This document shows, one piece after another, positions 8,008 through 52,865 of a stretch of DNA of 64,000 nucleotides (its first letter is position 1; every line of letters starts with the position of its first letter). Under the pieces are notes generated by a model. The model ran no database searches. It was not told the DNA's origin and saw only the letters and a program-made list of their open reading frames with translations. The DNA lies in the NCBI GenBank assembly GCA_001781125.1, contig MFKT01000001.1:3630-67629 (forward strand). The letters run 5' to 3'. Both the position numbers and the translations under genes were made by a program. The DNA is from Candidatus Kaiserbacteria bacterium RIFCSPHIGHO2_01_FULL_53_29 (GTDB taxonomy: Bacteria > Patescibacteriota > Minisyncoccia > Phycocordibacterales > UBA2100).

Positions 8008-8024
8008 AGGGCGCGTACAACAAG

Positions 8025-8129
8025 TTGCTTTTTTAACCCGTTCGGCTATAGTGCCTCAACGCTACGTCGGCCTTGGGCCGACCAATGGTAAGATGCTTCT
8101 CGCGTCTACCAGGGCGCGTTTTTCATTTT
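8025..8129 (+). promoter_or_regulatory. Sigma70 promoter and structured 5' leader of the r-protein operon
   Basis: TTGCTT-N16-TATAGT (8025-8052); hairpins 8066-8082 and 8086-8111 closed by aacgc/gcgtt. Confidence 0.55.
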
Positions 8130-8729
8130 ATGGCTAACAAATTCATGCTGGGCACCAAAGGGCGGATGACGCAGGTCTTCGATGAGAAGGGCGTTGTTTC
8201 TGCTGCGACCATTGTGAGCGCAGGGCCTCTCACCGTGACACAGATAAAGGGAAAAGAAACAGACGGTTACGACGGGGTACAGGTGGGTTTCCTCGCTGCA
8301 AAAGAGAAACACGTCAACAAAGCACAAAGTGGTAAACCGTTCACGTACCTCCGCGAATCATCCTTTGATGTCGCCCCGGAGATAGGCGCCTCGATCGACG
8401 TGTCAATTTTCGTCCCCGGCGACATGGTCACTGTTTCCGCCATCTCAAAAGGCAAAGGATTTCAAGGTGTTGTGAAGCGGCACGGATTCCACGGGGGCCC
8501 CAGAAGCCATGGTCAGAAAAATCGAGAGCGCTCTCCGGGCTCTATTGGCGGCGGCGGTCGCGCAGGCGGGCGTGTCGTGAAGGGAATGCGCATGGCAGGC
8601 CGCATGGGGGGCAGTAGGATCACCGTCAAAAATCTCAAGGTCTTGCAAGTAGACGTGGCCACCAATACACTCGTCATTTCGGGTGCCATTCCAGGGCGTC
8701 CCGGTACACTCGTCGAGATCAGAGGCTAA
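8130..8729 (+). CDS. rplC: 50S ribosomal protein L3
   Basis: GTKGRMTQVF, SKGKGFQGVVKRHGF, GMRMAGRMG. Confidence 0.97.
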   Translation: MANKFMLGTKGRMTQVFDEKGVVSAATIVSAGPLTVTQIKGKETDGYDGVQVGFLAAKEKHVNKAQSGKPFTYLRESSFDVAPEIGASIDVSIFVPGDMVTVSAISKGKGFQGVVKRHGFHGGPRSHGQKNRERSPGSIGGGGRAGGRVVKGMRMAGRMGGSRITVKNLKVLQVDVATNTLVISGAIPGRPGTLVEIRG

Positions 8730-8740
8730 TTTTGTACCTG

Positions 8741-8837
8741 TCCCGTTAGAAACAAACGTATATGAACAACGAAACAAAACATACAGAGAAAGAGACAAGA
8801 ACCACTGCCTCGAAAAAGGCCGGGGTTTCTAATGGGA
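8741..8837 (+). mobile_element. 97-bp MITE-like palindromic element (CCCGTTAGA family) at the rplD start
   Basis: tcccgttagaaac ... gtttctaatggga inverted repeat; the last base is the A of the ATG at 8837. Confidence 0.7.
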
Positions 8838-9517
8838 TGGAATCAGTAATTTACAACGCACAAGGAAAAAAGCAGGGCTCGGTGAAATTACCCGAGAGTA
8901 TTTTCGGCGTCGCGTGGAATGATTCGCTCATGCACCAGGTGGTGACGGGGATGCAGGCCAACGCGCGCTCGATGGTCGCGCATGTGAAAAACCGCGGAGA
9001 AGTGAGAGGCGGCGGCAAAAAGCCGTGGGCCCAAAAAGGAACTGGCCGCGCGCGCCATGGCTCTACGCGTAGTCCGATTTGGAAAGGCGGTGGCGTTACG
9101 CACGGGCCCCGGAAGGACAAAAACTATTCGCAAGCGATCCCGAAAAAGATGCGCGCGAAAGGGCTTTTCATGGCGCTTTCGCGCAAGCTCAAAGACAGCG
9201 AGATCATCTTTGTTGATTCGTTCGGATTGAATGGGCCGAAGACCGCCGCCGCCCAAAAAGTACTCGCGATACTCGGAGGAGTATCGGGCTTTGCAAAACT
9301 TGCCACCAAAAGAAAGAACGCCGCGCTCATAGCGCTTGCCGATCCGACCGAAGCTGCACAAAAGAGTTTCCGCAATATCGGCAACGTCACGTGTGTTGCG
9401 GTGCGCAATTTGAACCCCGTGTCTGTCCTCGGCAATTCCTATCTCATCATCGAAAATCCCGAAGCCGCAGTGGCGATTATTGCGCAGCGCGTTCGGAAGC
9501 CAGTGGCTAAACCCTAG
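8762..9517 (+). CDS. rplD: 50S ribosomal protein L4 (first 25 aa element-derived; conserved start likely 8837)
   Basis: RGEVRGGGKKPWAQKGTGRARHGS. Confidence 0.96.
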   Translation: MNNETKHTEKETRTTASKKAGVSNGMESVIYNAQGKKQGSVKLPESIFGVAWNDSLMHQVVTGMQANARSMVAHVKNRGEVRGGGKKPWAQKGTGRARHGSTRSPIWKGGGVTHGPRKDKNYSQAIPKKMRAKGLFMALSRKLKDSEIIFVDSFGLNGPKTAAAQKVLAILGGVSGFAKLATKRKNAALIALADPTEAAQKSFRNIGNVTCVAVRNLNPVSVLGNSYLIIENPEAAVAIIAQRVRKPVAKP

Positions 9518-9535
9518 TGGCGAACTACTATTCCT

Positions 9536-9892
9536 ATGGCACTATTTTCACGAAATAAGAAAAAAAACAAAATCGAATCGGCTCCGGCTTCTGTTTCGAT
9601 GAAGTCGAATACGCGAGACCTGTCGCACATCCTTCGTCATACCCGCATCACGGAAAAGGCAACCATGCACTCAGCCGATGGCGTCTATACGTTCGACATT
9701 GCCCCAAGTGCCACGAAGCGCGACGTCATGCAGGCGGTGCGGGCACTCTACAAGGTGACCCCGCGGCACGTAGCGGTCGTAAGCATTCCCACGAAGACGA
9801 AACGCAACGCACGAACGGGTAAAAGTGGCGTGAGGGGCGGAGGCAAAAAGGCCTATGTGTACCTTAAAAAAGGCGAGACCATAACGTTCTAA
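9536..9892 (+). CDS. rplW: 50S ribosomal protein L23
   Basis: ITEKA, YTFDI, KKAYVYLKKG; operon position. Confidence 0.95.
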   Translation: MALFSRNKKKNKIESAPASVSMKSNTRDLSHILRHTRITEKATMHSADGVYTFDIAPSATKRDVMQAVRALYKVTPRHVAVVSIPTKTKRNARTGKSGVRGGGKKAYVYLKKGETITF

Positions 9893-9897
9893 ATATG

Positions 9898-10029
9898 CCC
9901 GGCAGGACAATTTCGAATTGCTTCTTATGAATAATCATCAGCGTATGACAGAAAACATCTATCTATCAGATTGCAAAGTATTCGCAGTTGAAACTGCAGC
10001 AGGAATTATTCGAAATTGTACTAGCCGGG
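9898..10029 (+). mobile_element. 132-bp start-codon element, copy 1 (rplW-rplB)
   Basis: cccggcaggacaatttcgaat ... attcgaaattgtactagccggg, flanked by TATG on both sides; mini-ORFs 9895-9930 and 9927-10034. Confidence 0.9.
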
Positions 10030-10030
10030 T

Positions 10031-10873
10031 ATGAAAACATACAAACCAACATCGAAGTCCCAGCGTCAGCACACGAGCATTGAGTACCGCAAGCTTCTTT
10101 CGGGGCACAAGCCGGAGAAATCCCTTATGAAAGGTCGCCGCAGCTTCGGCGGGCGCAACTCATTTGGCCGAATCACGGTGCGCCATCAGGGCGGTGGGCA
10201 CAAGAAGACGTATCGGCAGGTGGATTTCAAATTCAATAAGAAAAATATCCCCGCGAAGGTCACTTCCATCGAGTACGACCCGTTCCGCTCCGGCTTCATC
10301 GGACTTGCCGTATATGCCGACGGGGAGAAGCGCTATTGTCTCGTGCCGCAGAAGGTGAAAGTGGGTGACACATTTCTTGTTTCCGAGAATGCTCCCGTAA
10401 CGCTCGCCAACCGATTGCCGCTGGGGAATATGCCAGTGGGAACATTCGTATACAACATCGAATTGAAGCCGGGCGAGGGCGCTGTCATCGCGCGTTCCGC
10501 GGGGAATTACTGCGAAGTCGTGGCACAAGATGCGGGCTACACGCACATCAAAATGCCCTCGACAGAAATACGCCGCGTCATCTCGACCGCGTGGGCGTCG
10601 GTGGGTGAAGTGTCCAACGAAGAGCATCGCTTGGTGAATCTCGGCAAAGCTGGCCGTAGCCGATGGCTAGGGCGTCGGCCGACTGTTCGCGGTACGGCAA
10701 TGAACCCGGTGGATCACCCGCACGGCGGAGGCGAAGGCAAGCAAGGTCGTGGTTCCCGCCGCCAGAAGACCATGTGGGGCAAACCTTCAGGCAAGGGCCA
10801 AAAGACGAGGCGGCCCAAGAAATATTCCAACGTCTTTATCGTCTCCCGCCGCAAAGTCGGGAAGAGGAAGTAA
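10031..10873 (+). CDS. rplB: 50S ribosomal protein L2
   Basis: GRITVRHQGGG, VRGTAMNPVDHPHGGGEG. Confidence 0.98.
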   Translation: MKTYKPTSKSQRQHTSIEYRKLLSGHKPEKSLMKGRRSFGGRNSFGRITVRHQGGGHKKTYRQVDFKFNKKNIPAKVTSIEYDPFRSGFIGLAVYADGEKRYCLVPQKVKVGDTFLVSENAPVTLANRLPLGNMPVGTFVYNIELKPGEGAVIARSAGNYCEVVAQDAGYTHIKMPSTEIRRVISTAWASVGEVSNEEHRLVNLGKAGRSRWLGRRPTVRGTAMNPVDHPHGGGEGKQGRGSRRQKTMWGKPSGKGQKTRRPKKYSNVFIVSRRKVGKRK

Positions 10874-10893
10874 ATTGTGCTGGCGTTGCGGTA

Positions 10894-10926
10894 TTGACAC
10901 GAATACGCCTGTAGATACAATGTATC
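10894..10926 (+). promoter_or_regulatory. Promoter and operator of mazEF
   Basis: TTGACA-N16-TACAAT-N6-ATG; palindrome gataca-a-tgtatc over the -10. Confidence 0.7.
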
Positions 10927-10927
10927 A

Positions 10928-11176
10928 ATGGCAACAAAAGTCCAAAAATGGGGGAATAGTCTCGCAGTCAGGATCCCCGACAATGTCGTTGAAGATGCCG
11001 GACTTGTTCCAGGAAAAGAAGTAACCGTCAGAAACGTCCGCAATACGGTCGTTATCACTCCGGTGAACGCAAAAAGGCGCCCGACACTCGAAGAACTCGT
11101 CGCTCGCATAACTCCCGAGAATCGGCACGACTATCAGTGGGGGGGAGTCGAGCCCGTTGGGAAGGAAATATGGTGA
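10928..11176 (+). CDS. mazE: AbrB/MazE family antitoxin
   Basis: KVQKWGNSLAVRIP ... TLEELVARITPENRH ... VGKEIW. Confidence 0.93.
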   Translation: MATKVQKWGNSLAVRIPDNVVEDAGLVPGKEVTVRNVRNTVVITPVNAKRRPTLEELVARITPENRHDYQWGGVEPVGKEIW

Positions 11177-11523
11177 AGGAAGGGTCACCACGCTATGTGC
11201 CAAATCGTGGAGATATTATATGGATCCAATTTTCACAGCGCAGAGGGCATGAGCAGGGTGGGCGAAGGCCAGCCATCATTCTTTCCTCGAAACAGTTCAG
11301 CGAACGTACTTCTTTTATATTCTGCTGTCCGATTACTTCAAAGGTGAAAGGATACGTTTTTGAAGTTCCCATAGCGGCCGGCCGAATACGAGGTGCGGTA
11401 CTTGCTGATCAAGCCTACACGTTTGACTGGCAGGCTCGTCGCCCAACATACGCGGCCCGCGCACCCGAAGCGGTCGTATCAAAGGTGGGTGAGTTGATCT
11501 CGATCCTCGCCCAAGGCGCATAG
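11170..11523 (+). CDS. mazF: MazF/PemK endoribonuclease toxin
   Basis: RGDIIW, GHEQGGRRPAIILS, CPITS; overlaps the mazE stop. Confidence 0.93.
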   Translation: MVKEGSPRYVPNRGDIIWIQFSQRRGHEQGGRRPAIILSSKQFSERTSFIFCCPITSKVKGYVFEVPIAAGRIRGAVLADQAYTFDWQARRPTYAARAPEAVVSKVGELISILAQGA

Positions 11524-11558
11524 TCCCACTTTCTAAGCCAAACCTACAGGCAAAAGAT

Positions 11559-11587
11559 TTGACTTATCAAGTCATTTCCTATACATT
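11559..11587 (+). promoter_or_regulatory. Internal promoter upstream of rpsS
   Basis: TTGACT-N17-TACATT followed by hairpin cccgc-gaag-gcggg. Confidence 0.55.
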
Positions 11588-11631
11588 ATGCGGACTCCCG
11601 CGAAGGCGGGTTTAATTTTGACTTGTATTCA

Positions 11632-11666
11632 CTAACACCTAGAACCTAGTCCCTAGCACCTAGTTC
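11632..11666 (+). repeat. 5 x 7-nt CTA-N4 array before rpsS
   Basis: ctaacac ctagaac ctagtcc ctagcac ctagttc at ATG. Confidence 0.85.
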
Positions 11667-11668
11667 AT

Positions 11669-12016
11669 ATGACACGCTCGCTCAAAAAAGGTCCCTACGT
11701 GGACGCGAAGTTGATGAAGAAAGTATCTCTGCGTAAAGCCACGCAGGGGTCTATTAAGACGTGGGCGCGCAGCTCGCAGATCGCACCGGAATTCGTCGGC
11801 TACACGTTTGCGGTGCACAACGGCAAAAGCTTCGAAGAGGTATATGTCTCCGAAGACATGGTCGGGCACCGGTTGGGTGAATTCTCACCGACGACCAAAT
11901 TCATCAAGCACGGCGGAAAGATGCAGAAAGAGACCGAGATGGCGGCCAAGGCCGCGGAAATCGCAGCGGCAACAGCAGCCAAGGCGACTACCACGACGAC
12001 CGCCGCAAAGAAATAA
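11669..12016 (+). CDS. rpsS: 30S ribosomal protein S19 with Ala/Thr C-terminal tail
   Basis: [22 protein letters not shown]. Confidence 0.97.
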
Positions 12017-12022
12017 TCTATG

Positions 12023-12154
12023 CCCGGCAGGACAATTTCGAATTGCTCACTATGAAAACTCACGAAACTACATCAAACGGAATAACCAAAGTGGTTTTAC
12101 TTACGGCCGTTGTTGAAACCTCGCAGGGAATTATTCGAAATTGTACTAGCCGGG
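12023..12154 (+). mobile_element. 132-bp start-codon element, copy 2 (rpsS-rplV)
   Basis: Same terminal repeats, TATG flanks; mini-ORFs 12020-12055 and 12052-12159. Confidence 0.9.
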
Positions 12155-12155
12155 T

Positions 12156-12599
12156 ATGAAAGCCACACTTACCAACTATCATCAGTCGCCGCGCAAGGTG
12201 GGGCTTGTTGCGAGTCTCATTCGCGGCAAGAGTGTTGTTGCTGCGCGCGCCGCATTGCTCTACTTGCCCAAAAAATCCTCGCCCGCGATCGGCAAGCTTC
12301 TGGACAGCGCCATTGCCAACGCCAACCGCGTAGGAGCGACGGCAGAAGATCTTTTTGTAAAGACGATTACGGTCAACAAGGGCGCCATCATGCGCCGGGC
12401 CAGGCCCTTTGCCCGTGGCCGCTCCGGCTCTATTAGGAAGACGATGAGCATTGTGTTCCTCGAACTCGGCCCTATCTCCGCCAAGGCTTCGAAGGGTAAG
12501 CACGCACCGAAAGCAGCGAATGTCAAAACTTCCAAAAAGTCCAACCGCAAGACAGGAAGTTCGAAGAAATCAAAGAAAGAACTAGTCCCTAGCACCTAG
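12156..12599 (+). CDS. rplV: 50S ribosomal protein L22 with Lys-rich tail
   Basis: SPRKVGLVASLIRGK, SAIANA, PFARGR. Confidence 0.96.
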   Translation: MKATLTNYHQSPRKVGLVASLIRGKSVVAARAALLYLPKKSSPAIGKLLDSAIANANRVGATAEDLFVKTITVNKGAIMRRARPFARGRSGSIRKTMSIVFLELGPISAKASKGKHAPKAANVKTSKKSNRKTGSSKKSKKELVPST

Positions 12600-12616
12600 T
12601 CCCTAGCACCTATTTA
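12582..12616 (+). repeat. 5 x 7-nt CTA-N4 array supplying the rplV stop, before rpsC
   Basis: ctagtcc ctagcac ctagtcc ctagcac ctattta t ATG. Confidence 0.85.
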
Positions 12617-12617
12617 T

Positions 12618-13319
12618 ATGACCCACACCGTACATCCATACGCCCACCGCCTCGGCATCATCCGCGACTGGAAATCGCGCTGGTTCTCCAAATCACCGGC
12701 GAAATATCGCGAGAACGTCTGTGTGGATGCCGCCATCCGCCGCTTCCTCAAGAAGCGCTTGCGGGGCAATTACGTTACCTCTGTCGAGATCGAGCGCAAC
12801 GAAAAGGCGATCCGCTGTCTGATCAGGACGTCGCGTCCGGGACTTGTCATCGGTCGTGGCGGGGAAGGCTCGACCAAGCTCACCAAGGAAATCGAGAAGG
12901 TCATCCGCACCGTGCCGCCCGCCAGAGGCGGGTCCTCCTTCGGAGGAAAAGCCTCCCCTCTCTCTGTGCGGCTCGATATCGAAGAGGTTCGCTCGCCGGA
13001 ATCACAATCACCGGTCGTCGCCTACATGGTCGCCGAAGGATTGGAAAAGCGACAGACGTTCCGCCGCGTCCTGAAACAGACGGTGGAGAAAGTGATGGCG
13101 AATCGTGATGTCCAAGGGGTGCGCATCGCCATCGCCGGCCGCCTCGGGGGAGCAGAGATGTCCCGCACCGAAGAGATCAAGCGCGGTCGCGTGCCTCTGC
13201 AGACTCTGCGCGCCGATATCGATTTTGCGCGCGAGACTGCGTATCTCCCGTATGGCGTTATCGGCATCAAAGTCTGGATCTACCGCGGCGACATCTTTGA
13301 TAAAGACGCAAAGAAGTAA
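12618..13319 (+). CDS. rpsC: 30S ribosomal protein S3
   Basis: RLGIIRDWKSRWF, GRVPLQTLRADID, YGVIGIKVWIY. Confidence 0.98.
   Translation: MTHTVHPYAHRLGIIRDWKSRWFSKSPAKYRENVCVDAAIRRFLKKRLRGNYVTSVEIERNEKAIRCLIRTSRPGLVIGRGGEGSTKLTKEIEKVIRTVPPARGGSSFGGKASPLSVRLDIEEVRSPESQSPVVAYMVAEGLEKRQTFRRVLKQTVEKVMANRDVQGVRIAIAGRLGGAEMSRTEEIKRGRVPLQTLRADIDFARETAYLPYGVIGIKVWIYRGDIFDKDAKK
12918..12950 (+). repeat. 33-nt in-frame double-hairpin insertion in rpsC
   Basis: cccgccagaggcggg tcctccttcggagga aaa (PARGGSSFGGK); sister copy at 49670-49702. Confidence 0.75.
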
Positions 13320-13334
13320 TTGCATTTGAATTTA

Positions 13335-13369
13335 CTATTCCCTAGCACCTATTCCCTAAAACCTAACTC
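13335..13369 (+). repeat. 5 x 7-nt CTA-N4 array before rplP
   Basis: ctattcc ctagcac ctattcc ctaaaac ctaactc ttt ATG. Confidence 0.85.
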
Positions 13370-13372
13370 TTT

Positions 13373-13795
13373 ATGTTGGCACCGAAAAAAGCGAAATACC
13401 GCAAATGGCAAACGGGCCGCAGGCGCGGAGCGCGTCTGGTGAAGCCGGAGACCCGGGGCATCACGGTCGCATTTGGCCAATTTGGATTGAAAGCGCTCAC
13501 ACAAGCACGCGTCACGTCCAATCAACTTGAAGCCGCGCGTCGCGCGCTTTCGCGCGCAGGCGGGAAATCCGCCAAGATCTGGACACGCATCTTTCCCGAC
13601 AGGCCGTTCACGCAAAAGGCTGCCGAAGTGGGCATGGGAAGCGGTAAGGGCGATGTCGCGGGTTACGTGTTCGAAGTGCGTCCGGGCCGGATTCTCTTCG
13701 AGATCGATGGCGCACCAGAGCAACAGGCCCGCGAGGCACTCCGCAAAGCTGGCACAAAATTGCCGCTCAAGGCTCGTGTCGTCGGGCGCGATTAG
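13373..13795 (+). CDS. rplP: 50S ribosomal protein L16
   Basis: MLAPKKAKYRK, RIFPDRP, MGSGKG, TKLP. Confidence 0.97.
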   Translation: MLAPKKAKYRKWQTGRRRGARLVKPETRGITVAFGQFGLKALTQARVTSNQLEAARRALSRAGGKSAKIWTRIFPDRPFTQKAAEVGMGSGKGDVAGYVFEVRPGRILFEIDGAPEQQAREALRKAGTKLPLKARVVGRD

Positions 13796-13825
13796 TTCGA
13801 CCACCGCATCACTCTAAATAAATTT

Positions 13826-14014
13826 ATGGATGATTTTTCAAAACAAGACATTGCGGAATTGCAGAAGCTCGTCGCTGACAAGCGCGAAGCATTGCGCGTA
13901 TTCCGATTTGGGGCAGAGGGTAGCCGCTCGCGCAATGTGCGCGAAGGGCGGACATTGCGCAAAGATATCGCACGCTTGCTCACTGAAGTCAGGAAGCGTA
14001 GTATCGCACAATAA
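13826..14014 (+). CDS. rpmC: 50S ribosomal protein L29
   Basis: LRKDIARLLT; operon position. Confidence 0.93.
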   Translation: MDDFSKQDIAELQKLVADKREALRVFRFGAEGSRSRNVREGRTLRKDIARLLTEVRKRSIAQ

Positions 14015-14016
14015 GT

Positions 14017-14292
14017 ATGGACGAAACTGAACAAAATGTTGGTAAAACGTTCGATGGCGTTGTCGTAAAGACGGCGATGAAAGACACGGCAAGCGTGCTG
14101 GTGGAACGCTATGTGAAGCATCCGAAATACAAAAAGTACATGCGCAAGAGTCAGAAGTTCCTCGTGCACGATCCGGGCAATACCGCTCAAGTCGGAGAGG
14201 AAGTTGTCATTCGCGAAACCCGTCCGATCTCCAAGCGCAAGCGCTTCATCCTCGTCTCCCGTATTTCCCCTTCGCTACAAGCTACAAGCTAA
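14017..14292 (+). CDS. rpsQ: 30S ribosomal protein S17
   Basis: GVVV..MKDT, HPKYKK, ETRPISKRKRF. Confidence 0.96.
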   Translation: MDETEQNVGKTFDGVVVKTAMKDTASVLVERYVKHPKYKKYMRKSQKFLVHDPGNTAQVGEEVVIRETRPISKRKRFILVSRISPSLQATS

Positions 14293-14309
14293 CGGCTACA
14301 AGCTTTTTC
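14275..14309 (+). repeat. 7-nt CTACAAG array supplying the rpsQ stop, before rplN
   Basis: ctacaag ctacaag ctaacgg ctacaag ctttttc ttt ATG. Confidence 0.8.
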
Positions 14310-14312
14310 TTT

Positions 14313-14693
14313 ATGATCCAAGACAGAACCCTTGTGAAAATTGCAGACAATTCCGGCGGCATCATCGGCCGGGTCTTCAAGATATTGGGCGGCTCGAAGC
14401 GCCGCTACGCTGGTATCGGCGACGAGATCGTCATCTCCATCCAGACCGCGCAGCCACGCAAATCGGTGAAGAAGAAAGAAGTGCACCGCGCCGTCGTCGT
14501 GCGTCAGACCAAAGCCTTTCGGCGGGCCGACGGCTCATACGTGCGTTTTGATGAAAATGCCGTCGTTCTTATCGCCGGATCGGGCAAAGAGCCCAGGGAG
14601 CCGAAAGCCAATCGTGTCTTCGGTCCTATCCCGCGTGAGGTCGTTGAGCGCGGATATCAGCGCATCGGCTCGCTCGCGCCGGAGATTGTATAA
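14313..14693 (+). CDS. rplN: 50S ribosomal protein L14
   Basis: MIQ...ADNSG, FDENAVV, SLAPEIV. Confidence 0.97.
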   Translation: MIQDRTLVKIADNSGGIIGRVFKILGGSKRRYAGIGDEIVISIQTAQPRKSVKKKEVHRAVVVRQTKAFRRADGSYVRFDENAVVLIAGSGKEPREPKANRVFGPIPREVVERGYQRIGSLAPEIV

Positions 14694-14700
14694 ATGTATG

Positions 14701-14832
14701 CCCGGCAGGACAATTTCGAATTGCCTTATATGAATATTCACCAGCGTATGAAAGAAAAACTAACTAACGGGCTTTGCAAAGTGTTCGCAGTTGAAACTGC
14801 GGCAGGAATTATTCGAAATTGTACTAGCCGGG
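14701..14832 (+). mobile_element. 132-bp start-codon element, copy 3 (rplN-rplX)
   Basis: Same terminal repeats, TATG flanks; mini-ORFs 14698-14733 and 14730-14837. Confidence 0.9.
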
Positions 14833-14833
14833 T

Positions 14834-15145
14834 ATGAAATTGAAAAAAGGAGATAAAGTGCTGGTAATAGCGGGGAAAAATAAGGGTCAAAGCGGTGCCA
14901 TTGTCCGGGTCCTGACGTCCCAAAACAAGGTGCTCCTCGACGGCATCAATCTTGTGAAGCGCCACCGCAAGCCATCCGCACAGAACCGCAAGGGCCAGAT
15001 CGTCGACAAGCCGATGCCCATTCATGCGTCCAATGTAATGCTTGCCGACCCAAAGACAGGGAAGCCGACACGTATCAAGATCGTGCGCGGCAAGGATGGC
15101 GAGCGCCAGCGCGTCGCCGTTAAAAGCGGACAGGAACTGAATTAA
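14834..15145 (+). CDS. rplX: 50S ribosomal protein L24
   Basis: KKGDKVLVIAGKNKG, PIHASNV. Confidence 0.97.
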   Translation: MKLKKGDKVLVIAGKNKGQSGAIVRVLTSQNKVLLDGINLVKRHRKPSAQNRKGQIVDKPMPIHASNVMLADPKTGKPTRIKIVRGKDGERQRVAVKSGQELN

Positions 15146-15146
15146 T

Positions 15147-15686: not shown

Positions 15687-15956
15687 TCAGCTCCCGAAGA
15701 GTTGATGATGCGTGCCCACGGCGCGCAAATAGAATGTCTGTGCATCGAGCTTTTTGTATACCAGCCGCCAATCCCCGGTAATATTGATGCTGGAATAACC
15801 ATCGAACGGGTGATGCAACTTGTGGTCGTTGAGCAGAGGATTGCGTTCGTCAGTAATCAACAACTCGATGCGCTTCCACAGCTTGTCCTGCACCCCTAGC
15901 GATAGCTTTTTCGCCTGCCGTTCGAACTCCCGGTGTGTTGGAAATCGCATGGACAC
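15687..15956 (-). CDS. RelE/YafQ-family mRNA interferase toxin
   Basis: LNDHKLH, SINITGDWRLVY, VGTHHQL. Confidence 0.88.
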   Translation of the reverse strand: MSMRFPTHREFERQAKKLSLGVQDKLWKRIELLITDERNPLLNDHKLHHPFDGYSSINITGDWRLVYKKLDAQTFYLRAVGTHHQLFGS

Positions 15957-16228
15957 TATTTCTCAATCGCCGCCCTCAATTCCTCAAGACTATTGTAGGT
16001 TTTTATATTGCGTCCAGTTTTGAGATCTTTCTCGCCCTGTATGAGCAACCGCTTCAAATACGGCGTCGGTTCGTACTCTTGAGCAGAGAAGGTGATTTGT
16101 TCCCGATTAACGATCTCCTTCAGCATCTGATTCATTACAGCGGAAAAGGGGATACCCATTTTCTTCGCCATTTTTTGTGTAGCTTCTTTCAGTTTCTTGT
16201 CTGTCTTGAAAATGACTGTAGTTTGCAT
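15956..16228 (-). CDS. RelB/DinJ-like antitoxin
   Basis: KTDKKLKE..A..MGIPFSAV (RHH fold); TATACT-N7-ATG at 16228; overlaps the toxin start. Confidence 0.85.
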   Translation of the reverse strand: MQTTVIFKTDKKLKEATQKMAKKMGIPFSAVMNQMLKEIVNREQITFSAQEYEPTPYLKRLLIQGEKDLKTGRNIKTYNSLEELRAAIEK

Positions 16229-16353
16229 ATACTGTAGTATATATTCTAGTATAAACCTGTCAAGCAAACAGGGAGGCGAGGCCTCCCTGTAAACTAAACC
16301 TGTATCAACAGGTTGTCGTGTCGAATCCCGATTGTTCCGGTATACTTTTAACT

Positions 16354-16710
16354 ATGGATAACATCAAATACACCGTTAAGAACACAGTAAACGGAGAAAA
16401 AAGAAGCGAAAAGGAATACGAAATTCCTGACAAGGTGAGCGACGTCAAACGGTTGATTGCTGAGATCCAAAGGGACGATGCGCTAATACTGAGGGATGTG
16501 CCGCGCCAAGCACTCGAAGCGTCAGGACGGGATCATGAGAATAAAGTTTGGGGTCACCACGAGGAGAAAGTGACCAATCACGCAAGAAAAATAAATGATC
16601 TTTTTGATCGCTACACTGACCTTAAAAGTGCACCTGAAAAGTTGGACGATGACGGGAAGCAAGTTTTGACTGAACTTGAGAAAATGTTAATTAAAGAAGG
16701 GGTATTGTAA
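16354..16710 (+). CDS. Hypothetical protein, AT-rich
   Basis: TATACT-N7-ATG; open frame. Confidence 0.6.
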   Translation: MDNIKYTVKNTVNGEKRSEKEYEIPDKVSDVKRLIAEIQRDDALILRDVPRQALEASGRDHENKVWGHHEEKVTNHARKINDLFDRYTDLKSAPEKLDDDGKQVLTELEKMLIKEGVL

Positions 16711-16714
16711 TTTG

Positions 16715-16881
16715 TTGACTTCGGCACCCATATCGCGTATATTTGCCGAGCCTCGTAGGGGGCCTTATTTTTTGACCACAGGTTGGAAGAAGAACAAGGC
16801 CACGCGAAGAAGCTTCTGTAAGTCGGCTGCGCAAGCGCCGGATGCAAGGGTTTCTAAGTCTCCTTAGGGGTTTTCACTACA
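16715..16881 (+). promoter_or_regulatory. Internal promoter and ~130-nt leader upstream of rpsN
   Basis: TTGACT-N17-TATATT (16715-16743) followed by a long untranslated leader. Confidence 0.55.
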
Positions 16882-17067
16882 ATGGCAAAGAAGTCAATGA
16901 TCATAAAGGCGAATCGCACGCCGAAATTCTCTAGCCGCACGGTGCGGCGCTGTTTCAAGTGCGGCCGCCCGCGCGGCTTTATGCGCGACTTCAACCTCTG
17001 CCGCATCTGCTTCCGCGAGGAGGCATTGGAAGGCAATATCCCAGGAATCAAAAAATCCTCATGGTAA
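16882..17067 (+). CDS. rpsN: 30S ribosomal protein S14, zinc-binding type
   Basis: CFKCGRPR...LCRICFRE...PGIKKSSW. Confidence 0.97.
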
Positions 17068-17178
17068 ATACGAATCTACAAATGAATACAAATCTACGAA
17101 TGGCTACGAATAAAAGCTACGCGAATTCGTTGACATTCGTAGTATTCGCATCTGCACCCCATTCGGATATATGGTAAA
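17061..17178 (+). mobile_element. 110-nt insert between rpsN and rpsH bounded by ATGGTAAA direct repeats, encoding a 38-aa mini-ORF
   Basis: ATGGTAAA at 17061 and 17171; (T)ACGAAT-type repeats followed by inverted ATTCG repeats; open frame 17061-17177. Confidence 0.7.
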
Positions 17179-17566
17179 CGACACAATCGGTGATTTCATA
17201 GTGCGACTTACAAATGCTGGTGCCATCAAGAAGGCGAGCGTCTCAGTGCCGTACTCGGCTTTCAAAATGGCGGTCGCGGAAAAGTTGAAAGACATGGGGC
17301 TCGTGCGAGACATCGAGAAGAAGGGCAAGAAAGTGCGCAAGACGCTCGACGTCGTGCTCAAGTACAACGAAGCGGGGAAGCACGTAATCTCCGGCGTGAA
17401 GCGCATTTCAAAGCCCGGACGGCGCATGTACAAAAGCGTGCATGAAATAATCCCCGTACGTTACGGACACGGCGCCTTGGTGCTTTCGACGCCGAAGGGA
17501 GTCTTGACCGACAAAGAGGCACGCAAGGCTAAGGTCGGCGGGGAAGCTCTCTTCGAGATCTGGTAA
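17171..17566 (+). CDS. rpsH: 30S ribosomal protein S8
   Basis: DTIGDFIVRLTNA, RISKPGRR, STPKGV, VGGE. Confidence 0.97.
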   Translation: MVNDTIGDFIVRLTNAGAIKKASVSVPYSAFKMAVAEKLKDMGLVRDIEKKGKKVRKTLDVVLKYNEAGKHVISGVKRISKPGRRMYKSVHEIIPVRYGHGALVLSTPKGVLTDKEARKAKVGGEALFEIW

Positions 17567-17576
17567 AGAAGATGTT

Positions 17577-17765
17577 ATGAACAAAGTGAATTACATATTC
17601 TTTACCCTCCCAAATTTTGCGCTCAACGCGCTTGAGTCGAATGCAGCACTTTGTCAGAGACCCGTCTCAACAATGCGCTATGTATGGCAGTCAGTTGCGC
17701 GAGCGGAAAATTTAGGAGGGTGGAAGTTATTGCTAAACTCGCTTACACTCGTTAAGCAAAACTAA
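17577..17765 (+). other. Palindromic insert between rpsH and rplF spanned by a 62-codon ORF
   Basis: Inverted repeat 17604-17624 / 17701-17721 (accctcccaaattttgcgctc / gagcggaaaatttaggagggt); ORF stops 2 nt before the rplF ATG. Confidence 0.6.
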
Positions 17766-17767
17766 CC

Positions 17768-18316
17768 ATGTCACGACTCGGCAAACTAGCTATAAAGATC
17801 CCCGCGGGCACCGACGTGTCCGTCGTGTCCCATGAGATCATCGTCAAAGGGAAGGGCGGGACTTTGAAGCGCATGCTTCATCCGGCAGTTTCCGTTGCTA
17901 TCGAAAATGGTGAGGCTTCTGTAACGCCCAAAGAGATGTCGCGCCTCGGCCGGGCACTCTGGGGTACCTACGCTGCGCACGTGCGCAATATGATTTCCGG
18001 AGTAAACACGCCGTTCGTAAAGAAGCTGCAGGTAGAAGGGATCGGCTACAAAGCGGAATTGTCGGGTAAATCTCTCAAACTTGCCGTGGGGTTCTCGCAT
18101 CCGGTCGTGCTTTCGATCCCCGAAGGCATTACCGCGGTGGTGGAGAAAAATATCATTACCGTGTCCGGTGCCGACAAGGAGCAGATCGGAGAATTTGCCG
18201 CATCCATCCGTGCGACCAGGAAGCCGGAGCCGTATAAGGGTAAGGGCATCCGATATGAGGGAGAGGTCGTACGGCAGAAGCAGGGCAAGAAAGCGGCTAC
18301 AGCGGCCGCCGCATAG
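17768..18316 (+). CDS. rplF: 50S ribosomal protein L6
   Basis: MSRLGK, GFSHPV, PEPYKGKGIRY. Confidence 0.98.
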   Translation: MSRLGKLAIKIPAGTDVSVVSHEIIVKGKGGTLKRMLHPAVSVAIENGEASVTPKEMSRLGRALWGTYAAHVRNMISGVNTPFVKKLQVEGIGYKAELSGKSLKLAVGFSHPVVLSIPEGITAVVEKNIITVSGADKEQIGEFAASIRATRKPEPYKGKGIRYEGEVVRQKQGKKAATAAAA

Positions 18317-18345
18317 TTCGACGTTGCTCACTATAAACAAAATAT

Positions 18346-18690
18346 ATGTCACTTTCAAAATCAGCACAAAGAGACCGGCGCCACAAGCGAGTGCGCGCGA
18401 AGGTCATTGGCAGCGGAGCGCGGCCGCGTCTCTCTATCTACAAATCCAACACGCGTCTCACGGCGCAGATCATTGACGACGCGAAGGGTATCACTATCGC
18501 TGCTGTCTCGTCTGCCGAAGAGAAAGGCAAGACACCGCGCGAGCGGGCAGAAGCCGCTGCCGCAACACTTGCAAAGCATGCGGGCGCTAAGGGCGTGAAG
18601 ACGGTGGTTTTCGATCGTGGCGGTTTTCAATATCTTGGAACGGTGAAAGCGTTTGCCGATGCCGCGCGCGCTGCAGGACTCGAATTCTAA
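18346..18690 (+). CDS. rplR: 50S ribosomal protein L18
   Basis: RPRLSIYKSN, VFDRGGFQY, AR.AGLEF. Confidence 0.97.
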   Translation: MSLSKSAQRDRRHKRVRAKVIGSGARPRLSIYKSNTRLTAQIIDDAKGITIAAVSSAEEKGKTPRERAEAAAATLAKHAGAKGVKTVVFDRGGFQYLGTVKAFADAARAAGLEF

Positions 18691-18697
18691 TAATTAT

Positions 18698-19327
18698 ATG
18701 AATGTAGAACAAAATCCAGAACAGGAAGTAGCGACACCGGCAGACGAGGTTGTTGTGGAGGTGCCGGTTACGCCAGTAGAGCCACGTGCGCCACAGCAAG
18801 GCTTTGGAGGTGCTCGCGGGAATCGTGACCGGCGTGGCGGAGGTCGCGGGGGCCGTCCGGGTGGACAGCGTCGCGGGGGCGATGAGCGACGCTCGGAATT
18901 TGCGCAAAAATTGATCGGCATCCGGCGCGTCGCGCGCGTTATGGCAGGCGGTCGCCGCTTCAATTTCTCTGCGGCACTCGTGCTCGGCGACAAGAAAGGG
19001 CGGGTAGGAGTTGGCTTGGGCAAAGCCGCAGACACCGCGCAAGCGATCGAAAAGGCGACCCGTGCGGCAAAACGCGCCATGATTAATTTGAATCTGACGA
19101 AAACCCGCAGTCTCGCGCATAATGTCGAGGCCAAATACTGTGCATCGCGCGTCGAGATCCGACCTTCTCCCGGCCGGGGACTCGTCGCGGGTTCATCGGT
19201 GCGCACCGTGCTTGAGCTTGCCGGAGTCTCGGACGTCACGGCCAAGCTTCTTTCGCGCAGTAAAAATCCGGTCAACAACGCGCGCGCAGCTATCGAGGCC
19301 CTGAAGAGCATCTCGATCACACAATAG
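18698..19327 (+). CDS. rpsE: 30S ribosomal protein S5
   Basis: RVARVMAGGRRFNFSA, VLELAGV; ATG at 18698. Confidence 0.97.
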   Translation: MNVEQNPEQEVATPADEVVVEVPVTPVEPRAPQQGFGGARGNRDRRGGGRGGRPGGQRRGGDERRSEFAQKLIGIRRVARVMAGGRRFNFSAALVLGDKKGRVGVGLGKAADTAQAIEKATRAAKRAMINLNLTKTRSLAHNVEAKYCASRVEIRPSPGRGLVAGSSVRTVLELAGVSDVTAKLLSRSKNPVNNARAAIEALKSISITQ

Positions 19328-19331
19328 ACAT

Positions 19332-19781
19332 ATGGCATCACTCAATGCACTCAAACGCATGACAAAGAGGGCATATCGCCGCGTTGGGCGGGGACAATCG
19401 AGTACGCGTGGCAAGCAATCAGGTCGTGGCGGCAAGGGGCAAACCGCGCGGGCCGGCAACAAACGCCGACCCGAGATGCGCGACATCATCAAGAAATTGC
19501 CCAAGCGCCGCGGATACGGCAAGAACCGTGGACGCACCGTAGACGGCACCAGGCCGGATGCGGTCGCTCTCTCGATCGAACGCCTCAACGCTCTCTTTGA
19601 TGCGGGGGCGGAGGTGACGCCGCGAGCGCTTCAGGAGAAGGGTATTCTCAAACGGCGCACAATGGTGCCCGTGAAGATCGTCGGCGCAGGTGTTGCAAGC
19701 GGGAAATTTTCCATAAAAGGGATCGCAGTTTCCGCGTCCGCCCGCGCAGCGATCGAGAAGGCAGGCGGAACAATTGCATAG
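19332..19781 (+). CDS. rplO: 50S ribosomal protein L15
   Basis: RVGRG..GKQSGRGGKGQTARAG, IEKAGG. Confidence 0.96.
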   Translation: MASLNALKRMTKRAYRRVGRGQSSTRGKQSGRGGKGQTARAGNKRRPEMRDIIKKLPKRRGYGKNRGRTVDGTRPDAVALSIERLNALFDAGAEVTPRALQEKGILKRRTMVPVKIVGAGVASGKFSIKGIAVSASARAAIEKAGGTIA

Positions 19782-19807
19782 TTCGACGAAGCTCACTATA
19801 AATATCT

Positions 19808-21082
19808 ATGATGGAAACATTCTTGCGCAAAGTAAAACTTGTCTTCGAAGACGAGACGCTCCGCACGCGCATTCTCTTCGTCTTAGGCGCACTCGTAGTG
19901 TTCCGGTTTCTCGCTGCGATCCCCATTCCGGGTATCGACGCCACACAGCTTGAAGCATTTTTGAGCAACAACCAATTTCTCGGACTGCTTAATATATTCT
20001 CGGGAGGCGGCTTCTCGAACCTTTCTATCATGATGATCGGTGTCTCTCCGTACATCACTGCGTCGATCGTCATGCAGCTCATGACCGTCCTTATCCCGAA
20101 GTTGAAGGAGATGTATCAGGAGGAAGGTGACGCCGGCCGGATGCGCTTTATGCAATATTCGCGCTATCTCACTGTGCCGCTCGCGTTCGTTCAGGCGTTT
20201 GGATTTCTCCTCTTGCTCCAACAGAACGGTATTGTACCGGCTCTTTCCCCCTTGGGATTTGCGACCAACGTCTTTGTAATAGCCGCCGGCGCCATGCTCA
20301 TCATGTGGATCGGTGAGCTCGTCTCGGAATTCGGTGTAGGCAACGGTATCTCGCTCATTATTTTTGCGGGCATTGTTGCGGGTATCCCGAGCAGCGTATC
20401 GCAGTTCGCATTCTCCTTCGATGTCTCGCAGATTCCCACATATGTCGGATTTACTGCGGCTGCGGCCCTCATCATCGCGGGTGTCGTCTTCATTACCGAG
20501 GCTGAGCGGCCCATTCCCGTCACCTATGCCCGCCGCGTGCGCGGGACGAAAGTCTTGGGCGGCATTTCCACGTATTTGCCGCTTCGTGTGAATCAGGCCG
20601 GAGTGATCCCGATTATTTTTGCGCTCTCGATACTTCTCTTTCCGCAAATGATCGCCACGTTCCTCGCAAAAAGCTCCATCCCCTTCATTGCGTCCGCCGC
20701 AAGCGCGGTTGTTTCCGGCCTTGCCAATCAATGGATCTACGGCGGGCTGTATTTCTTCCTGGTATTCATCTTTACTTACTTCTATACTGCGATCACTTTT
20801 GAGCCGCATCAAGTCGCCAAGAACCTGCAGAAGAACGGCGCCTTTATTCCCGGAGTCCGGCCCGGTGGCACAACGGCGGAATATTTGGGAAACATCATCA
20901 CACGCATCACGCTCGTGGGCGCGCTCTTCCTGGGTATCCTTGCGGTTCTGCCGATCATTCTTCAGGGTATCACCGGAATTACCGCGGTCACGATCGGTGG
21001 CACGGCGCTCCTCATCGTTGTCTCTGTGGTATTGGACCTTGTCAAAAAGATTGACGCGCAGACGTCTATCAGAGAGTATTAA
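19808..21082 (+). CDS. secY: Preprotein translocase SecY
   Basis: GVSPYITASI, GVGNGISLIIF, FIPGVRPG, GGTALLIVV. Confidence 0.98.
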   Translation: MMETFLRKVKLVFEDETLRTRILFVLGALVVFRFLAAIPIPGIDATQLEAFLSNNQFLGLLNIFSGGGFSNLSIMMIGVSPYITASIVMQLMTVLIPKLKEMYQEEGDAGRMRFMQYSRYLTVPLAFVQAFGFLLLLQQNGIVPALSPLGFATNVFVIAAGAMLIMWIGELVSEFGVGNGISLIIFAGIVAGIPSSVSQFAFSFDVSQIPTYVGFTAAAALIIAGVVFITEAERPIPVTYARRVRGTKVLGGISTYLPLRVNQAGVIPIIFALSILLFPQMIATFLAKSSIPFIASAASAVVSGLANQWIYGGLYFFLVFIFTYFYTAITFEPHQVAKNLQKNGAFIPGVRPGGTTAEYLGNIITRITLVGALFLGILAVLPIILQGITGITAVTIGGTALLIVVSVVLDLVKKIDAQTSIREY

Positions 21083-21087
21083 TTGGA

Positions 21088-21684
21088 ATGGAGGCGGTAA
21101 CAGTCAAGCAAGTTGTGGTAATCGCCGGGCCATCCGGATCGGGCAAGAACGTCGTTATCAACGAGATATTGAAGCGGTATCCCAATTGCGCGCGGCTCGT
21201 GACGGCGACAACACGCGCGATGCGTCCCGGTGAGCAGGAAGGCGTCGACTATTATTTTATGTCGCAGGAGCAATTCGATGAGCAATTGAGTGCGGGAAAT
21301 ATCCTCGAACATCGCTTCGTTCCCGCACTCAACACCTACTACGGCACCTACCTGCCTGATCTCGCGAAAAGGATGAGCGAGGGAAAGATCGTTTTCGCAC
21401 AAGTGGACATCGAGGGGGCCAGGCTTCTGAAGAGTCGCTATGGGGCAACGACGATCTTCATCATGCCGGAATCACTCGAACAATTCAGGGCTCGTCTGCA
21501 TGTGCGCAACCCCGAATGGTCAGAGATCGAATTCAAAGCACGTATGAAAGTGACGGAACAAGAATTACATGAACACGCACCGCAGTATGACTATCGTATT
21601 GTGAACGCCGACGGAAAGTTGGAGGACACGCTGCGCGAGGTCGTGGAAATAATGCAGAAAGAAGGCTACAATCTCTCAACATGA
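21088..21684 (+). CDS. gmk: Guanylate kinase
   Basis: GPSGSGK, TTRAMRPGEQEGVDYYF. Confidence 0.93.
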   Translation: MEAVTVKQVVVIAGPSGSGKNVVINEILKRYPNCARLVTATTRAMRPGEQEGVDYYFMSQEQFDEQLSAGNILEHRFVPALNTYYGTYLPDLAKRMSEGKIVFAQVDIEGARLLKSRYGATTIFIMPESLEQFRARLHVRNPEWSEIEFKARMKVTEQELHEHAPQYDYRIVNADGKLEDTLREVVEIMQKEGYNLST

Positions 21685-21685
21685 A

Positions 21686-21782
21686 CCCCGTTAGAAAAAC
21701 GTTTTCAGGAATGTTGGCCAAAATAGTTTCTATGTGCAATACGAACGTTACTTTGATATGACAGATACATTTTCTAATGGGG
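21686..21782 (+). mobile_element. 97-bp CCCGTTAGA-family element at the adk start
   Basis: ccccgttagaaaa ... ttttctaatgggg, flanked by TGAA on both sides; mini-ORF 21681-21761. Confidence 0.8.
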
Positions 21783-22384
21783 TGAAACCCCTTACCGTTT
21801 TATTTTTCGGCTCACAGGGTGCTGGCAAAGGCACGCAGGTAAAGATGCTCATCGATTACCTCCGATCGAGATCGGATCGGGGTGTCGTCCATATCGACAT
21901 GGGCCAGCAACTCCGAAATCTCCGGGATACCGGCACATGGGCGGGGAAACTCACCGGTGAAATTATCGATGCGGGGGTACGCATCTATGATTTTATGGCG
22001 ATTTACCTCCAAACAAAACTGCTTGTGGATAATTTCACCGGCGAGCAGCATATCATCGCCGATGGCCTGGCGCGCGGGGAAGACCAGACACGAGGGTTCG
22101 ACGACATGATGCAATTTTTCAAGCGTGACGATCTTCAGGTCATCAACCTGGTAATTTCCGATGATACGGCAGTGAAGCGCCTCCTTGCGCGCGGCCGCAA
22201 CGACGATACGGAGGAAGCGATACGAAGGCGTCTCGCATGGACAAAAACGGACGTGATACCGCAGCTTGAACTTTTGAAAGGTCGCGGCCGCGCGATCCAC
22301 GAGATCGACGGTGAACCGGATGTCGCGTTGATACACAAGAGTATCCTGAAAGTTCTGGAATTGGCGCCCATAAAGGGGATCTAA
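21758..22384 (+). CDS. adk: Adenylate kinase-family NMP kinase (start ATG 21758 or GTG 21782)
   Basis: GSQGAGKGTQ, RGRNDDTEEAIRRRL; lies between secY and map. Confidence 0.85.
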   Translation: MTDTFSNGVKPLTVLFFGSQGAGKGTQVKMLIDYLRSRSDRGVVHIDMGQQLRNLRDTGTWAGKLTGEIIDAGVRIYDFMAIYLQTKLLVDNFTGEQHIIADGLARGEDQTRGFDDMMQFFKRDDLQVINLVISDDTAVKRLLARGRNDDTEEAIRRRLAWTKTDVIPQLELLKGRGRAIHEIDGEPDVALIHKSILKVLELAPIKGI

Positions 22385-22424
22385 GAATTTCCAACTCGTA
22401 TATGCTCGTAAGAACTTCTAAGAC

Positions 22425-23195: not shown

Positions 23196-23200
23196 GTTCT

Positions 23201-52701: not shown

Positions 52702-52731
52702 CGAGTATCAAATTTAGGCCCCGATGATATG

Positions 52732-52864
52732 CCCGGTAGGACAATTTCGAATCGCCTTGATATGAATATTTACCAGCGTATGACGAGAAAAATTGATTCG
52801 AGAATTTTGCAGCCATTCGTCGTTGATACCGCGGCAAGAATTATTCGAAATTGTACTGACCGGG
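52732..52864 (+). mobile_element. 133-bp start-codon element, copy 4
   Basis: cccggtaggacaatttcgaat ... attcgaaattgtactgaccggg, TATG flanks; one extra base fuses the mini-ORFs into a single 46-aa ORF 52729-52869. Confidence 0.88.
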
Positions 52865-52865
52865 T

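Follow-up and report, generated by a model that had tools for sequence, protein, structure and literature searches.

Hairpin repeats at start codons in a Patescibacteria ribosomal protein operon and the reading frames that cross them

Inserts and cargo genes in the operon

The window, a 64,000-nucleotide stretch of the genome of Candidatus Kaiserbacteria bacterium RIFCSPHIGHO2_01_FULL_53_29, includes a ribosomal protein operon with seven long spacers. The gaps from stop codon to conserved start were 107 nt at rplC-rplD, 138 nt at rplW-rplB, 139 nt at rpsS-rplV, 140 nt at rplN-rplX, 103 nt at rpsN-rpsH, 201 nt at rpsH-rplF, and 97 nt at gmk-adk; relatives have median-type values of −7 to +10 at these junctions. 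The spacers belong to four sequence types (family A, three copies; family B, two copies; a heptamer-run hairpin; and family C), in agreement with a first-pass annotation that had described seven junctions of about 100 to 200 nt and four palindromic types. All seven inserts are given on the plus strand.

The family A insert at rplW-rplB (9895..10034) is entered at +2 by an 11-aa ORF (9895-9930), which passes through an ATGA overlap to a 35-aa ORF (9927-10034) that ends in an ATGA overlap with rplB. The copy at rpsS-rplV (12020..12159; ORFs 12020-12055 and 12052-12159) is entered at +3 and then follows the same path. At rplN-rplX (14694..14837, with the element starting at 14698), the relay is either one 47-aa ORF entered at +0 (14694-14837) or a chain of 11 and 35 aa entered at +4 (14698-14733 and 14730-14837), and the exit is again an ATGA overlap. 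A copy of family A beyond the operon, the fourth (52729..52869, plus strand), has one 46-aa relay ORF with an ATGA-overlap end.

The heptamer-run hairpin at rpsN-rpsH (17061..17177) is flanked by two copies of the 7-nt overlap between start and stop, and its 38-aa ORF is entered at −7 and left by a −7 overlap. Family C at rpsH-rplF (17567..17767) comprises three hairpins and is entered at +5 by a 2-aa ORF (17572-17580) or at +10, followed by a 62-aa ORF (17577-17765) that stops 2 nt before rplF; when full-length family C was searched for in this genome, the window's copy was the sole match. The family B insert at gmk-adk (21681..21781, arms 21687-21781) is entered at −4 by a 26-aa ORF (21681-21761) whose ATGA overlap leads to an ATG within the element (21758); this ATG is fused in frame to adk, which gains 8 codons before its core GTG (21782). 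The other family B insert, at rplC-rplD (8742..8836), has an entry ATG at +32 (8762) that adds 25 in-frame codons to rplD (core start, 8837), the in-frame fusion that the first-pass annotation had reported.

We called a spacer bridged if it could be crossed with no untranslated hop over 10 nt. ATG-started relay frames bridged 6 of the 7 long spacers in the window, as first claimed, compared with 0.7 for a dinucleotide shuffle, 1.4 when the first 15 nt were left in place during shuffling, 0 for the reverse complement, and 2.3 with deletions of 1 to 2 nt. Because a single element accounts for three of the six, there are about four independent cases; two of the six are two-ORF chains. Folding z-scores were −3.9 (rplC-rplD), −5.7 (rplW-rplB), −4.2 (rpsS-rplV), −4.3 (rplN-rplX), and −3.8 (rpsH-rplF); the rpsN-rpsH and gmk-adk inserts (−1.9 each) are weakly folded. 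An Rfam search of 7900-23300 gave no match at an E value of ≤1, including any r-protein leader or riboswitch. Four DNA sequencing runs contained difference-free pieces over parts of the stretch, with joints likely from other organisms, and are not treated as evidence.

Two junctions carry toxin-antitoxin cargo. A mazE-mazF pair (10928..11523, plus strand) occupies the rplB-rpsS slot behind a promoter-like site (10894..10921, plus strand) whose −10 box ends 6 nt before the mazE ATG, predicting a leaderless transcript, and a relB-yafQ type pair lies on the opposite strand (15687..16228, minus strand) in the rplE-rpsN slot. Promoter-like sites precede rpsS (11559..11587, plus strand) and rpsN (16715..16743, plus strand). 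The promoters proposed for these junctions are not new: with a strict motif, both sites were found across the genus, at 29/45 and 29/50 junctions, including ones that lack toxin-antitoxin genes. None of the 22 spacers at promoter junctions in the genus was bridged.

Bridging in the genus and the class

Core r-protein junctions were compared across 60 genomes of the same genus. We counted rplB-rpsS and rplE-rpsN apart as promoter junctions, placed the secY, gmk, and adk junctions outside the core set, and omitted rplR-rpsE, where a variable rpsE N-terminus mimics fusion. Of the long core spacers in the genus, 35/83 were bridged, compared with 5.7, 14.1, 5, and 19.6 under four nulls (the last being a frameshift null), and a per-genome test against shuffles gave P values of 2e−5 to 1e−3. 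The remaining 48 were unbridged at the 10-nt limit, 16 of them even at 35 nt. In the class, 18/107 long spacers were bridged where 6.7 were expected, with 8 from one genome and a per-genome P value of 0.27 against shuffles. Over all junctions, the counts were 53/138 (8.6 expected) in the genus and 20/142 (8.1 expected) in the class. The enrichment of bridging ORFs anticipated from the window was therefore found in the genus but not firmly in the class, and what had been called a general rule is a strong lineage-level filter. ORFs also occur in spacers over 250 nt.

Bridging tracks hairpin strength. Exit coupling, in which an ORF ends at or is fused to the downstream start, was found in 60 of 69 well-folded and 6 of 20 weakly folded genus spacers. 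Another 174 genus spacers, of 20 to 60 nt, were unfolded, and only 44 of them contained any ATG. In the class, folding did not predict exit coupling (P = 0.74), and in genus spacers the predicted pairing at the downstream start was similar for coupled (0.61) and uncoupled (0.57) cases (P = 0.51).

With the window included, exit-coupled ORFs were present in 66/89 spacers (26.8 expected) and full relays in 40/89. This excess of exits over full relays would suit fresh initiation, in which ribosomes start at an AUG within an unpaired A-rich loop and continue through the right arm with no need to come from the upstream gene, as would the rplC-rplD ATG, which lies in a predicted loop 32 nt into the spacer, and the many relatives with a hop of 24 to 66 nt before an internal ATG. 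In three rplX-rplE inserts of family B, the sole ATG lies 67 to 88 nt in. However, entry ATGs no more than 10 nt from the preceding stop were also enriched (61/89, compared with 30 expected), and the two-step family A copies (32 copies of 131 to 132 nt) keep their ATGA hand-over. We consider fresh initiation somewhat unlikely as the explanation, and it could coexist with the reading that we prefer below.

The starts of this genome showed no Shine-Dalgarno signal, in keeping with the premise that they work without such pairing: GGAG preceded 18 of 645 starts, compared with 18.8 after shuffling. The anti-Shine-Dalgarno core (CCUCC at the 16S 3′ end) was absent in all 13 relatives with a readable end, this genome's own 16S being unassembled; such absence has been reported for part of the Parcubacteria (PMC9297842). 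The proposed link between bridging and its loss was not seen, although numbers in the class were small (2/8 bridged among anti-SD-positive and 3/39 among anti-SD-negative cases, the split covering 30 of 39 genomes with a 16S end). The class could not be split by Shine-Dalgarno use in the operon, which stayed below 25% in every genome that had long spacers. The claim that internal cistrons depend on coupling also fared poorly, given the unfolded 20- to 60-nt spacers and the complete family A relays at 26 of 30 starts without a close upstream gene.

Family A frames and their targets

Family A, the commonest family, shows tuning site by site. After identical copies were merged, there were 85 distinct copies, of which 77 carried an ATG at each end, were followed by an ORF, and were thus inserted at start codons; the 8 lacking an end ATG were dropped. 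The named records with family A were Patescibacteria, and copies were found at unrelated genes too. The ends are inverted, the ATG is doubled, and the base before it matches in 60/77, which suggests a duplication of 3 to 4 nt of no fixed length. Complete relays were found in 70 of the 77 (34 expected for a random frame and 26.6 for shuffled interiors), and none ran through out of frame (20.9 expected). Three of the seven broken copies lie directly behind an upstream stop.

The exit frame followed the base after the target's ATG. Of the 32 working ATGA targets, 24 had the +4 exit, an ATGA overlap, and none of the 38 working targets without ATGA had this frame (Fisher's exact test on 24/8/0/37, P = 4.6e−12; 12/6/0/7 in this genome alone), and 8 of 46 copies with the −6 exit were at ATGA targets compared with 40% of starts (P = 0.002); the copies are not independent, as relatives may carry one and the same insertion, and these P values overstate the strength of the signal. 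The selection filter first suggested appears here as selection at each site. On the family A tree, exit type changed 15 times, at least 4 of them forced by well-supported branches, and was partly clustered (1 to 2 of 500 shuffles were as low). Two clean subfamilies with different targets were rejected as the sole cause on account of these changes and of the end sequences common to both exit types.

In families A and B, the full-length copies carry a GIY-YIG nuclease gene that begins at the left ATG. The small single-domain ORFs, of 93 and 94 aa, match PF01541 (E values, 5e−16 and 3e−17); the nearest solved chains are the UPF0213 proteins 1zg2 and 1ywl, and an NCBIfam search gave a sub-threshold match only. 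In intact family A the nuclease stop is a TAG or TAA 6 nt before the target ATG, which makes the relay frame a remnant of that gene. In short copies, the interior is scrambled and remains open in a frame suiting the target. The hairpin repeats are likely mobile, and their layout suggests that the nuclease could be the mobiliser.

The relay might be built in only, arising from conserved ends and the duplication of start and stop with no selection at the host site. The left ATG, the ATGA step, and the TAG exit all lie within the conserved ends of family A, the −6 exit corresponds to the stop codon of the nuclease gene itself, and the 7-nt rpsN/rpsH overlap (present at 14 of 50 genus junctions) supplies both entry and exit for free when duplicated around the insert. 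Yet the same ends serve both exits while the frame follows the host base, interiors only 41% alike stay open, and the genus count of bridged spacers exceeds the frameshift null. The match of frame to target largely refutes built-in design as the sole cause, and we regard it as improbable.

The same match is left unexplained if the hairpins are cut by RNase III or excised to leave a short or no leader downstream, with the ORFs as by-products. This genome does have an RNase III gene, the terminal stems are long, and 105 of 668 uncoupled starts have a leaderless-type −10 box 12 nt upstream; we nevertheless think such processing very improbable. Slightly less probable still is a domesticated regulatory layer, raised by the first-pass annotation, in which mini-ORFs or hairpins tune r-protein output by leader-peptide or protein-binding control. 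The heptamer-run insert at rpsN-rpsH also occurs in one relative, which keeps its 38-aa frame, and the preference for the overlap exit over −6 at ATGA targets suggests tuning of efficiency. Against this, inserts are patchy among relatives, some of which have none at the same junctions, and differ at the same junction (a second, unrelated insert is a full relay at rpsN-rpsH in 3 relatives); they also occur at unrelated genes, their peptides are not conserved, the frame read in the same DNA varies, and Rfam yielded no match.

A probable filter on hairpin repeats and its relation to known systems

We favor the explanation, at a probability of about 0.72, that the spacers are likely mobile hairpin repeats that land on start codons and whose copies survive only if translation passes through the hairpin and either ends at the displaced start or continues into it. 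The repeats sit at many different start codons, and the left ATG would take over the context in which the gene originally started, whether coupled or leaderless. For family A, the native AUG of the gene is predicted to fall within the closing stem. Initiation independent of Shine-Dalgarno pairing needs an unfolded start region (PMC3121790), and a start codon buried in a stem would be unable to load ribosomes in this way. Translation of the insert would melt the stem, and re-initiation at the gene would follow. Relay frames end at or fuse with the next start most likely because a hairpin left untranslated would shut off the downstream gene. Copies whose frame does not fit would be purged or retuned by 1-nt indels, and cargo genes would be kept chiefly at the two junctions with an old promoter from which transcription starts again.

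More tentatively, and at somewhat less than even odds, GIY-YIG cassettes may target start codons, be expressed from the host start, and hand the ribosome back, with one host filter retuning their deleted derivatives and all other hairpin repeats of this Shine-Dalgarno-free lineage, the frame being set to the invaded gene's fourth base. If so, the repeats would amount to a genome-wide natural mutagenesis screen for re-initiation rules in uncultured bacteria. If relays are selected, the surviving copies give tolerated stop-start distances without culture (+4 preferred, −6 accepted, out-of-frame run-through unseen) and address how translation starts in Patescibacteria lacking an anti-Shine-Dalgarno sequence. 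Relays would also explain how repeats are tolerated inside essential operons of compact genomes, and they suggest a role in mobility, open to testing, for small GIY-YIG proteins. For annotation, some N-terminal extensions and tiny ORFs here derive from repeats.

Among the titles that our literature search, largely of open-access papers, listed, none dealt with such relays in Patescibacteria. Bacterial MITEs and REP-type repeats are short, multicopy, non-autonomous elements with inverted ends and a short flanking duplication. The repeats described here are likewise short and multicopy, with inverted ends and an ATG on both sides, but the one enclosed gene found is a GIY-YIG nuclease rather than a DDE or Y1 transposase. 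In Escherichia coli and Haloferax, −4-nt overlaps and very short gaps hand ribosomes on, and coupling is nearly abolished at about 20 nt (PMC10666635); those are native gene pairs of species that use Shine-Dalgarno pairing, whereas here the partner upstream would be a disposable mini-ORF within a repeat.

Ssn nucleases with NTS/SRM repeats, for which an insertion sequence-like layout has been proposed (Chenal et al. 2025, PMC11893778), also combine a small single-domain GIY-YIG gene between hairpin-forming repeats with many gene-less copies. Here, in contrast, the gene lies between two arms that pair with one another and extend over its start and stop. The term "start codon" does not occur in the main text of that paper, and the SRM search motif matched 0/7 inserts and 0/2 nuclease copies, with 3 matches in all of this genome.

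The closest precedent in print is the mycobacterial MIRUs, short repeats that insert at start codons and whose ORF is coupled to the gene at −4 nt, which is believed to render the insertion harmless (PMC12548453, summarising Supply et al. 1997). Compared by description rather than by sequence, both are inserts at start codons with an internal ORF coupled to the downstream gene (by sequence, in 70/77 of family A). The inserts described here differ in that no fewer than four unrelated families occur in one operon, the terminal stems are long, either of two exits may be used and in-frame fusions occur as well, the frame follows the target's fourth base, full-length copies have a GIY-YIG gene, and the host is a Patescibacteria genome from a lineage without the anti-Shine-Dalgarno core.

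Relay frames in the ribosomal-protein operon

The S10-spc ribosomal-protein operon occupies the window from rplC at 8130 to map at 23195, in a genome of 1.11 Mb. Seven of its junctions are 97 to 201 nt long (the same junctions mostly measure -7 to +10 nt in relatives), and hairpin repeats are present in every one of them. These repeats belong to four types, here called families A, B, and C and the heptamer-run hairpin. We defined a relay as one or more short ATG-started frames that span a spacer and end at, or are fused with, the next start, and a spacer as bridged if no untranslated hop exceeded 10 nt. As the first-pass annotation had reported, six of the seven junctions were bridged; at rplC-rplD, a 32-nt hop was followed by an in-frame fusion. 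Dinucleotide shuffles gave a chance expectation of 0.7 bridged junctions, reverse complements one of 0, and deletions of 1 to 2 nt one of 2.3. Relay bridging is real and above chance, with one single element accounting for three of the six bridged junctions.

The junctions that hold toxin-antitoxin pairs in the window, rplB-rpsS and rplE-rpsN, were counted apart from the core junctions. Their promoters had been described as new, but those predicted upstream of rpsS and rpsN are found repeatedly in the genus, whether or not cargo is present. Because of this recurrence, and because the rplE-rpsN junction is at least 170 nt long in 49 of 49 relatives, both pairs sit in old cargo slots. None of 22 promoter-junction spacers of 81 to 300 nt was bridged (0.7 expected; P = 6e-5 versus core junctions); no relay is kept where transcription restarts, which fits a filter. 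Each antitoxin gene is predicted to be leaderless, with a -10 box 6 to 7 nt upstream of its ATG (10894-10928 and 16263-16228). Between the relB and rpsN promoters lies a 118-aa ORF (16354-16710) with no Pfam match.

A mini-hairpin of 25 to 30 nt, overlapping the upstream TAG and containing no ORF, forms the spacers at 18317-18345 and 19782-19807; this type occurs in 38 of the 174 genus spacers of 20 to 60 nt. Single runs of a 7-nt repeat, unpaired and without an ORF, stand directly before rpsS, rpsC, and rplP (11631-11665, 12581-12615, and 13334-13368) and may be remnants of heptamer-hairpin arms. At the rplN-rplX junction of six related operon loci (L026, L029, L044, L061, L077, and L079), a small twin-hairpin insert lies within a copy of the first rplX codons (MKLKKGD-like); this copy ends in a stop, and rplX starts anew at a second ATG downstream. 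Guanylate kinase (21088-21684 in the window) is located between secY and adk in 33 relatives within the genus, but at only 1 class-level locus. A 679-aa ORF at 5472-7511, with cysteine-rich repeats of 31 to 32 aa, is probably a surface protein.

Exit frames matched to the target gene

Family A has 27 copies in this genome, of which 26 sit on start codons, and a pattern scan of species genomes found 57 further loci; named records with the repeat were mostly from Kaiserbacteria and other Patescibacteria. Merging identical copies and dropping eight without an ATG at both ends left 77 copies, 129 to 136 nt long with one, two, or three ORFs each. The left ATG takes the former position of the target gene's start and lies ≤10 nt from the upstream stop (47 copies), behind a -10-like box (13), or in another context (17). 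Two exits are possible at the right end: one is a stop codon 6 nt upstream of the target ATG, the other a TGA present only with an ATGA target. Complete relays were found in 70 of the 77 copies (expected: 34 for a random frame, 26.6 for a shuffled interior), and none ran on out of frame into the gene (20.9 expected). At ATGA targets, 24 copies had the overlap exit, 8 the earlier stop, and 5 were broken, versus 0, 38, and 2, respectively, at other targets. Of all the observations, this matching of frame to target points most strongly to selection at individual sites; the Fisher value of 4.6e-12 overstates it, as the copies are partly dependent on one another. Interior sequences are 41% identical, and the ends are common to both exit types. 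Exit type changed 15 times, at least 4 of them forced, on a poorly resolved tree on which it is somewhat clustered. Because different copies read the same DNA in different frames, the relay peptide is unlikely to matter.

Extent of the relays and their probable role

Operon annotation covered 60 genomes of the same genus and 60 of the same class, chosen with a preference for long contigs out of 67 and 100, respectively, that gave a match. Among genus core spacers of 81 to 300 nt, 35 of 83 were bridged at the 10-nt limit (dinucleotide shuffle, 5.7; shuffle keeping the first 15 nt, 14.1; reverse complement, 5; 1- to 2-nt deletions, 19.6), with per-genome P values from 2e-5 to 1e-3. Raising the limit to 20 and 35 nt gave 49 and 67 bridged spacers (12.0 and 24.3 expected). 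Bridging was spread over many unrelated repeat clusters; three clusters (8, 3, and 11 spacers) were bridged in only 0, 0, and 1. In-frame fusions made up only 2 of the 35. An ORF ended at or was fused to the downstream start in 66 of 89 genus spacers (26.8 expected), namely, 60 of 69 well-folded versus 6 of 20 weakly folded ones; pairing at the downstream start itself did not differ between coupled and uncoupled genus spacers (P = 0.51). At the class level, 18 of 107 spacers were bridged (6.7 expected), 8 of them from one genome, with per-genome P values of 0.27, 0.04, and 0.017 against three nulls, and no folding effect was seen. The proposed general rule therefore holds strongly within this genus and only weakly outside it. 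One class-level genome (G178, locus L124) has long spacers at 18 operon junctions, with 8 of the 15 core ones bridged.

The premise of initiation without Shine-Dalgarno (SD) sequences is consistent with the sequences: no SD enrichment was found at gene starts in this genome, the anti-SD core was missing in 13 of 13 relatives whose 16S 3' end was read, and 21 of the 30 class genomes read likewise lacked it, in agreement with PMC9297842. Of 668 uncoupled starts, as defined by crude gene calls, 105 have a leaderless-type TAnnnT motif at the peak position, 12 nt upstream. No link between relays and anti-SD loss was seen in these small groups (bridging, 2/8 in anti-SD-positive versus 3/39 in anti-SD-negative class genomes). 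Nor was a dependence of internal cistrons on coupling supported: the 174 short genus spacers are unfolded, G-poor, and mostly without an ATG, so not all internal genes need it. Unfolded spacers likely permit fresh initiation (PMC3121790), and folded ones likely do not. Further, family A relays were complete at 26 of 30 uncoupled versus 44 of 47 coupled starts; since these are equally complete, the need is to return the ribosome to the gene rather than coupling itself. Ribosomes would translate the relay frame inside the insert, the hairpin stem would melt during this translation, and re-initiation would follow at the displaced gene start; copies in a bad frame would be purged or retuned. For copies with long left arms, ribosome loading in the hairpin loop is a likely second route.

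Nuclease relics and known systems

In this genome, a GIY-YIG nuclease gene that begins at the left ATG is enclosed in a family A copy of 302 nt and in a family B copy of 275 nt; neither family C nor the heptamer type was found to enclose a gene here. Among 23 metagenome loci with relatives, 17 were examined, and 12 of these had family-A-like ends. In five 99-aa copies, the nuclease frame stops 6 nt short of the following gene's ATG. The -6 exit is thus the stop codon of the nuclease itself, and the short copies look like products of internal deletion. The family B nuclease has an ATGA overlap with both neighbors, and of the 25 family B copies before an ORF in this genome, none runs through out of frame, most exiting near the start or carrying an in-frame ATG. 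We infer that the nuclease moves its element. Two further small GIY-YIG genes in this genome (C9:465-680 and C27:3275-3475) end directly at apparent tRNA genes, as judged by eye.

No account of such relays in Patescibacteria appeared among the titles that literature searches returned. The repeats work like the mycobacterial MIRUs (PMC12548453) but are not members of that family. Families A and B are built like the Ssn-type nuclease cassette (PMC11893778), but its SRM motif is absent from all seven inserts and from both nuclease copies tested.
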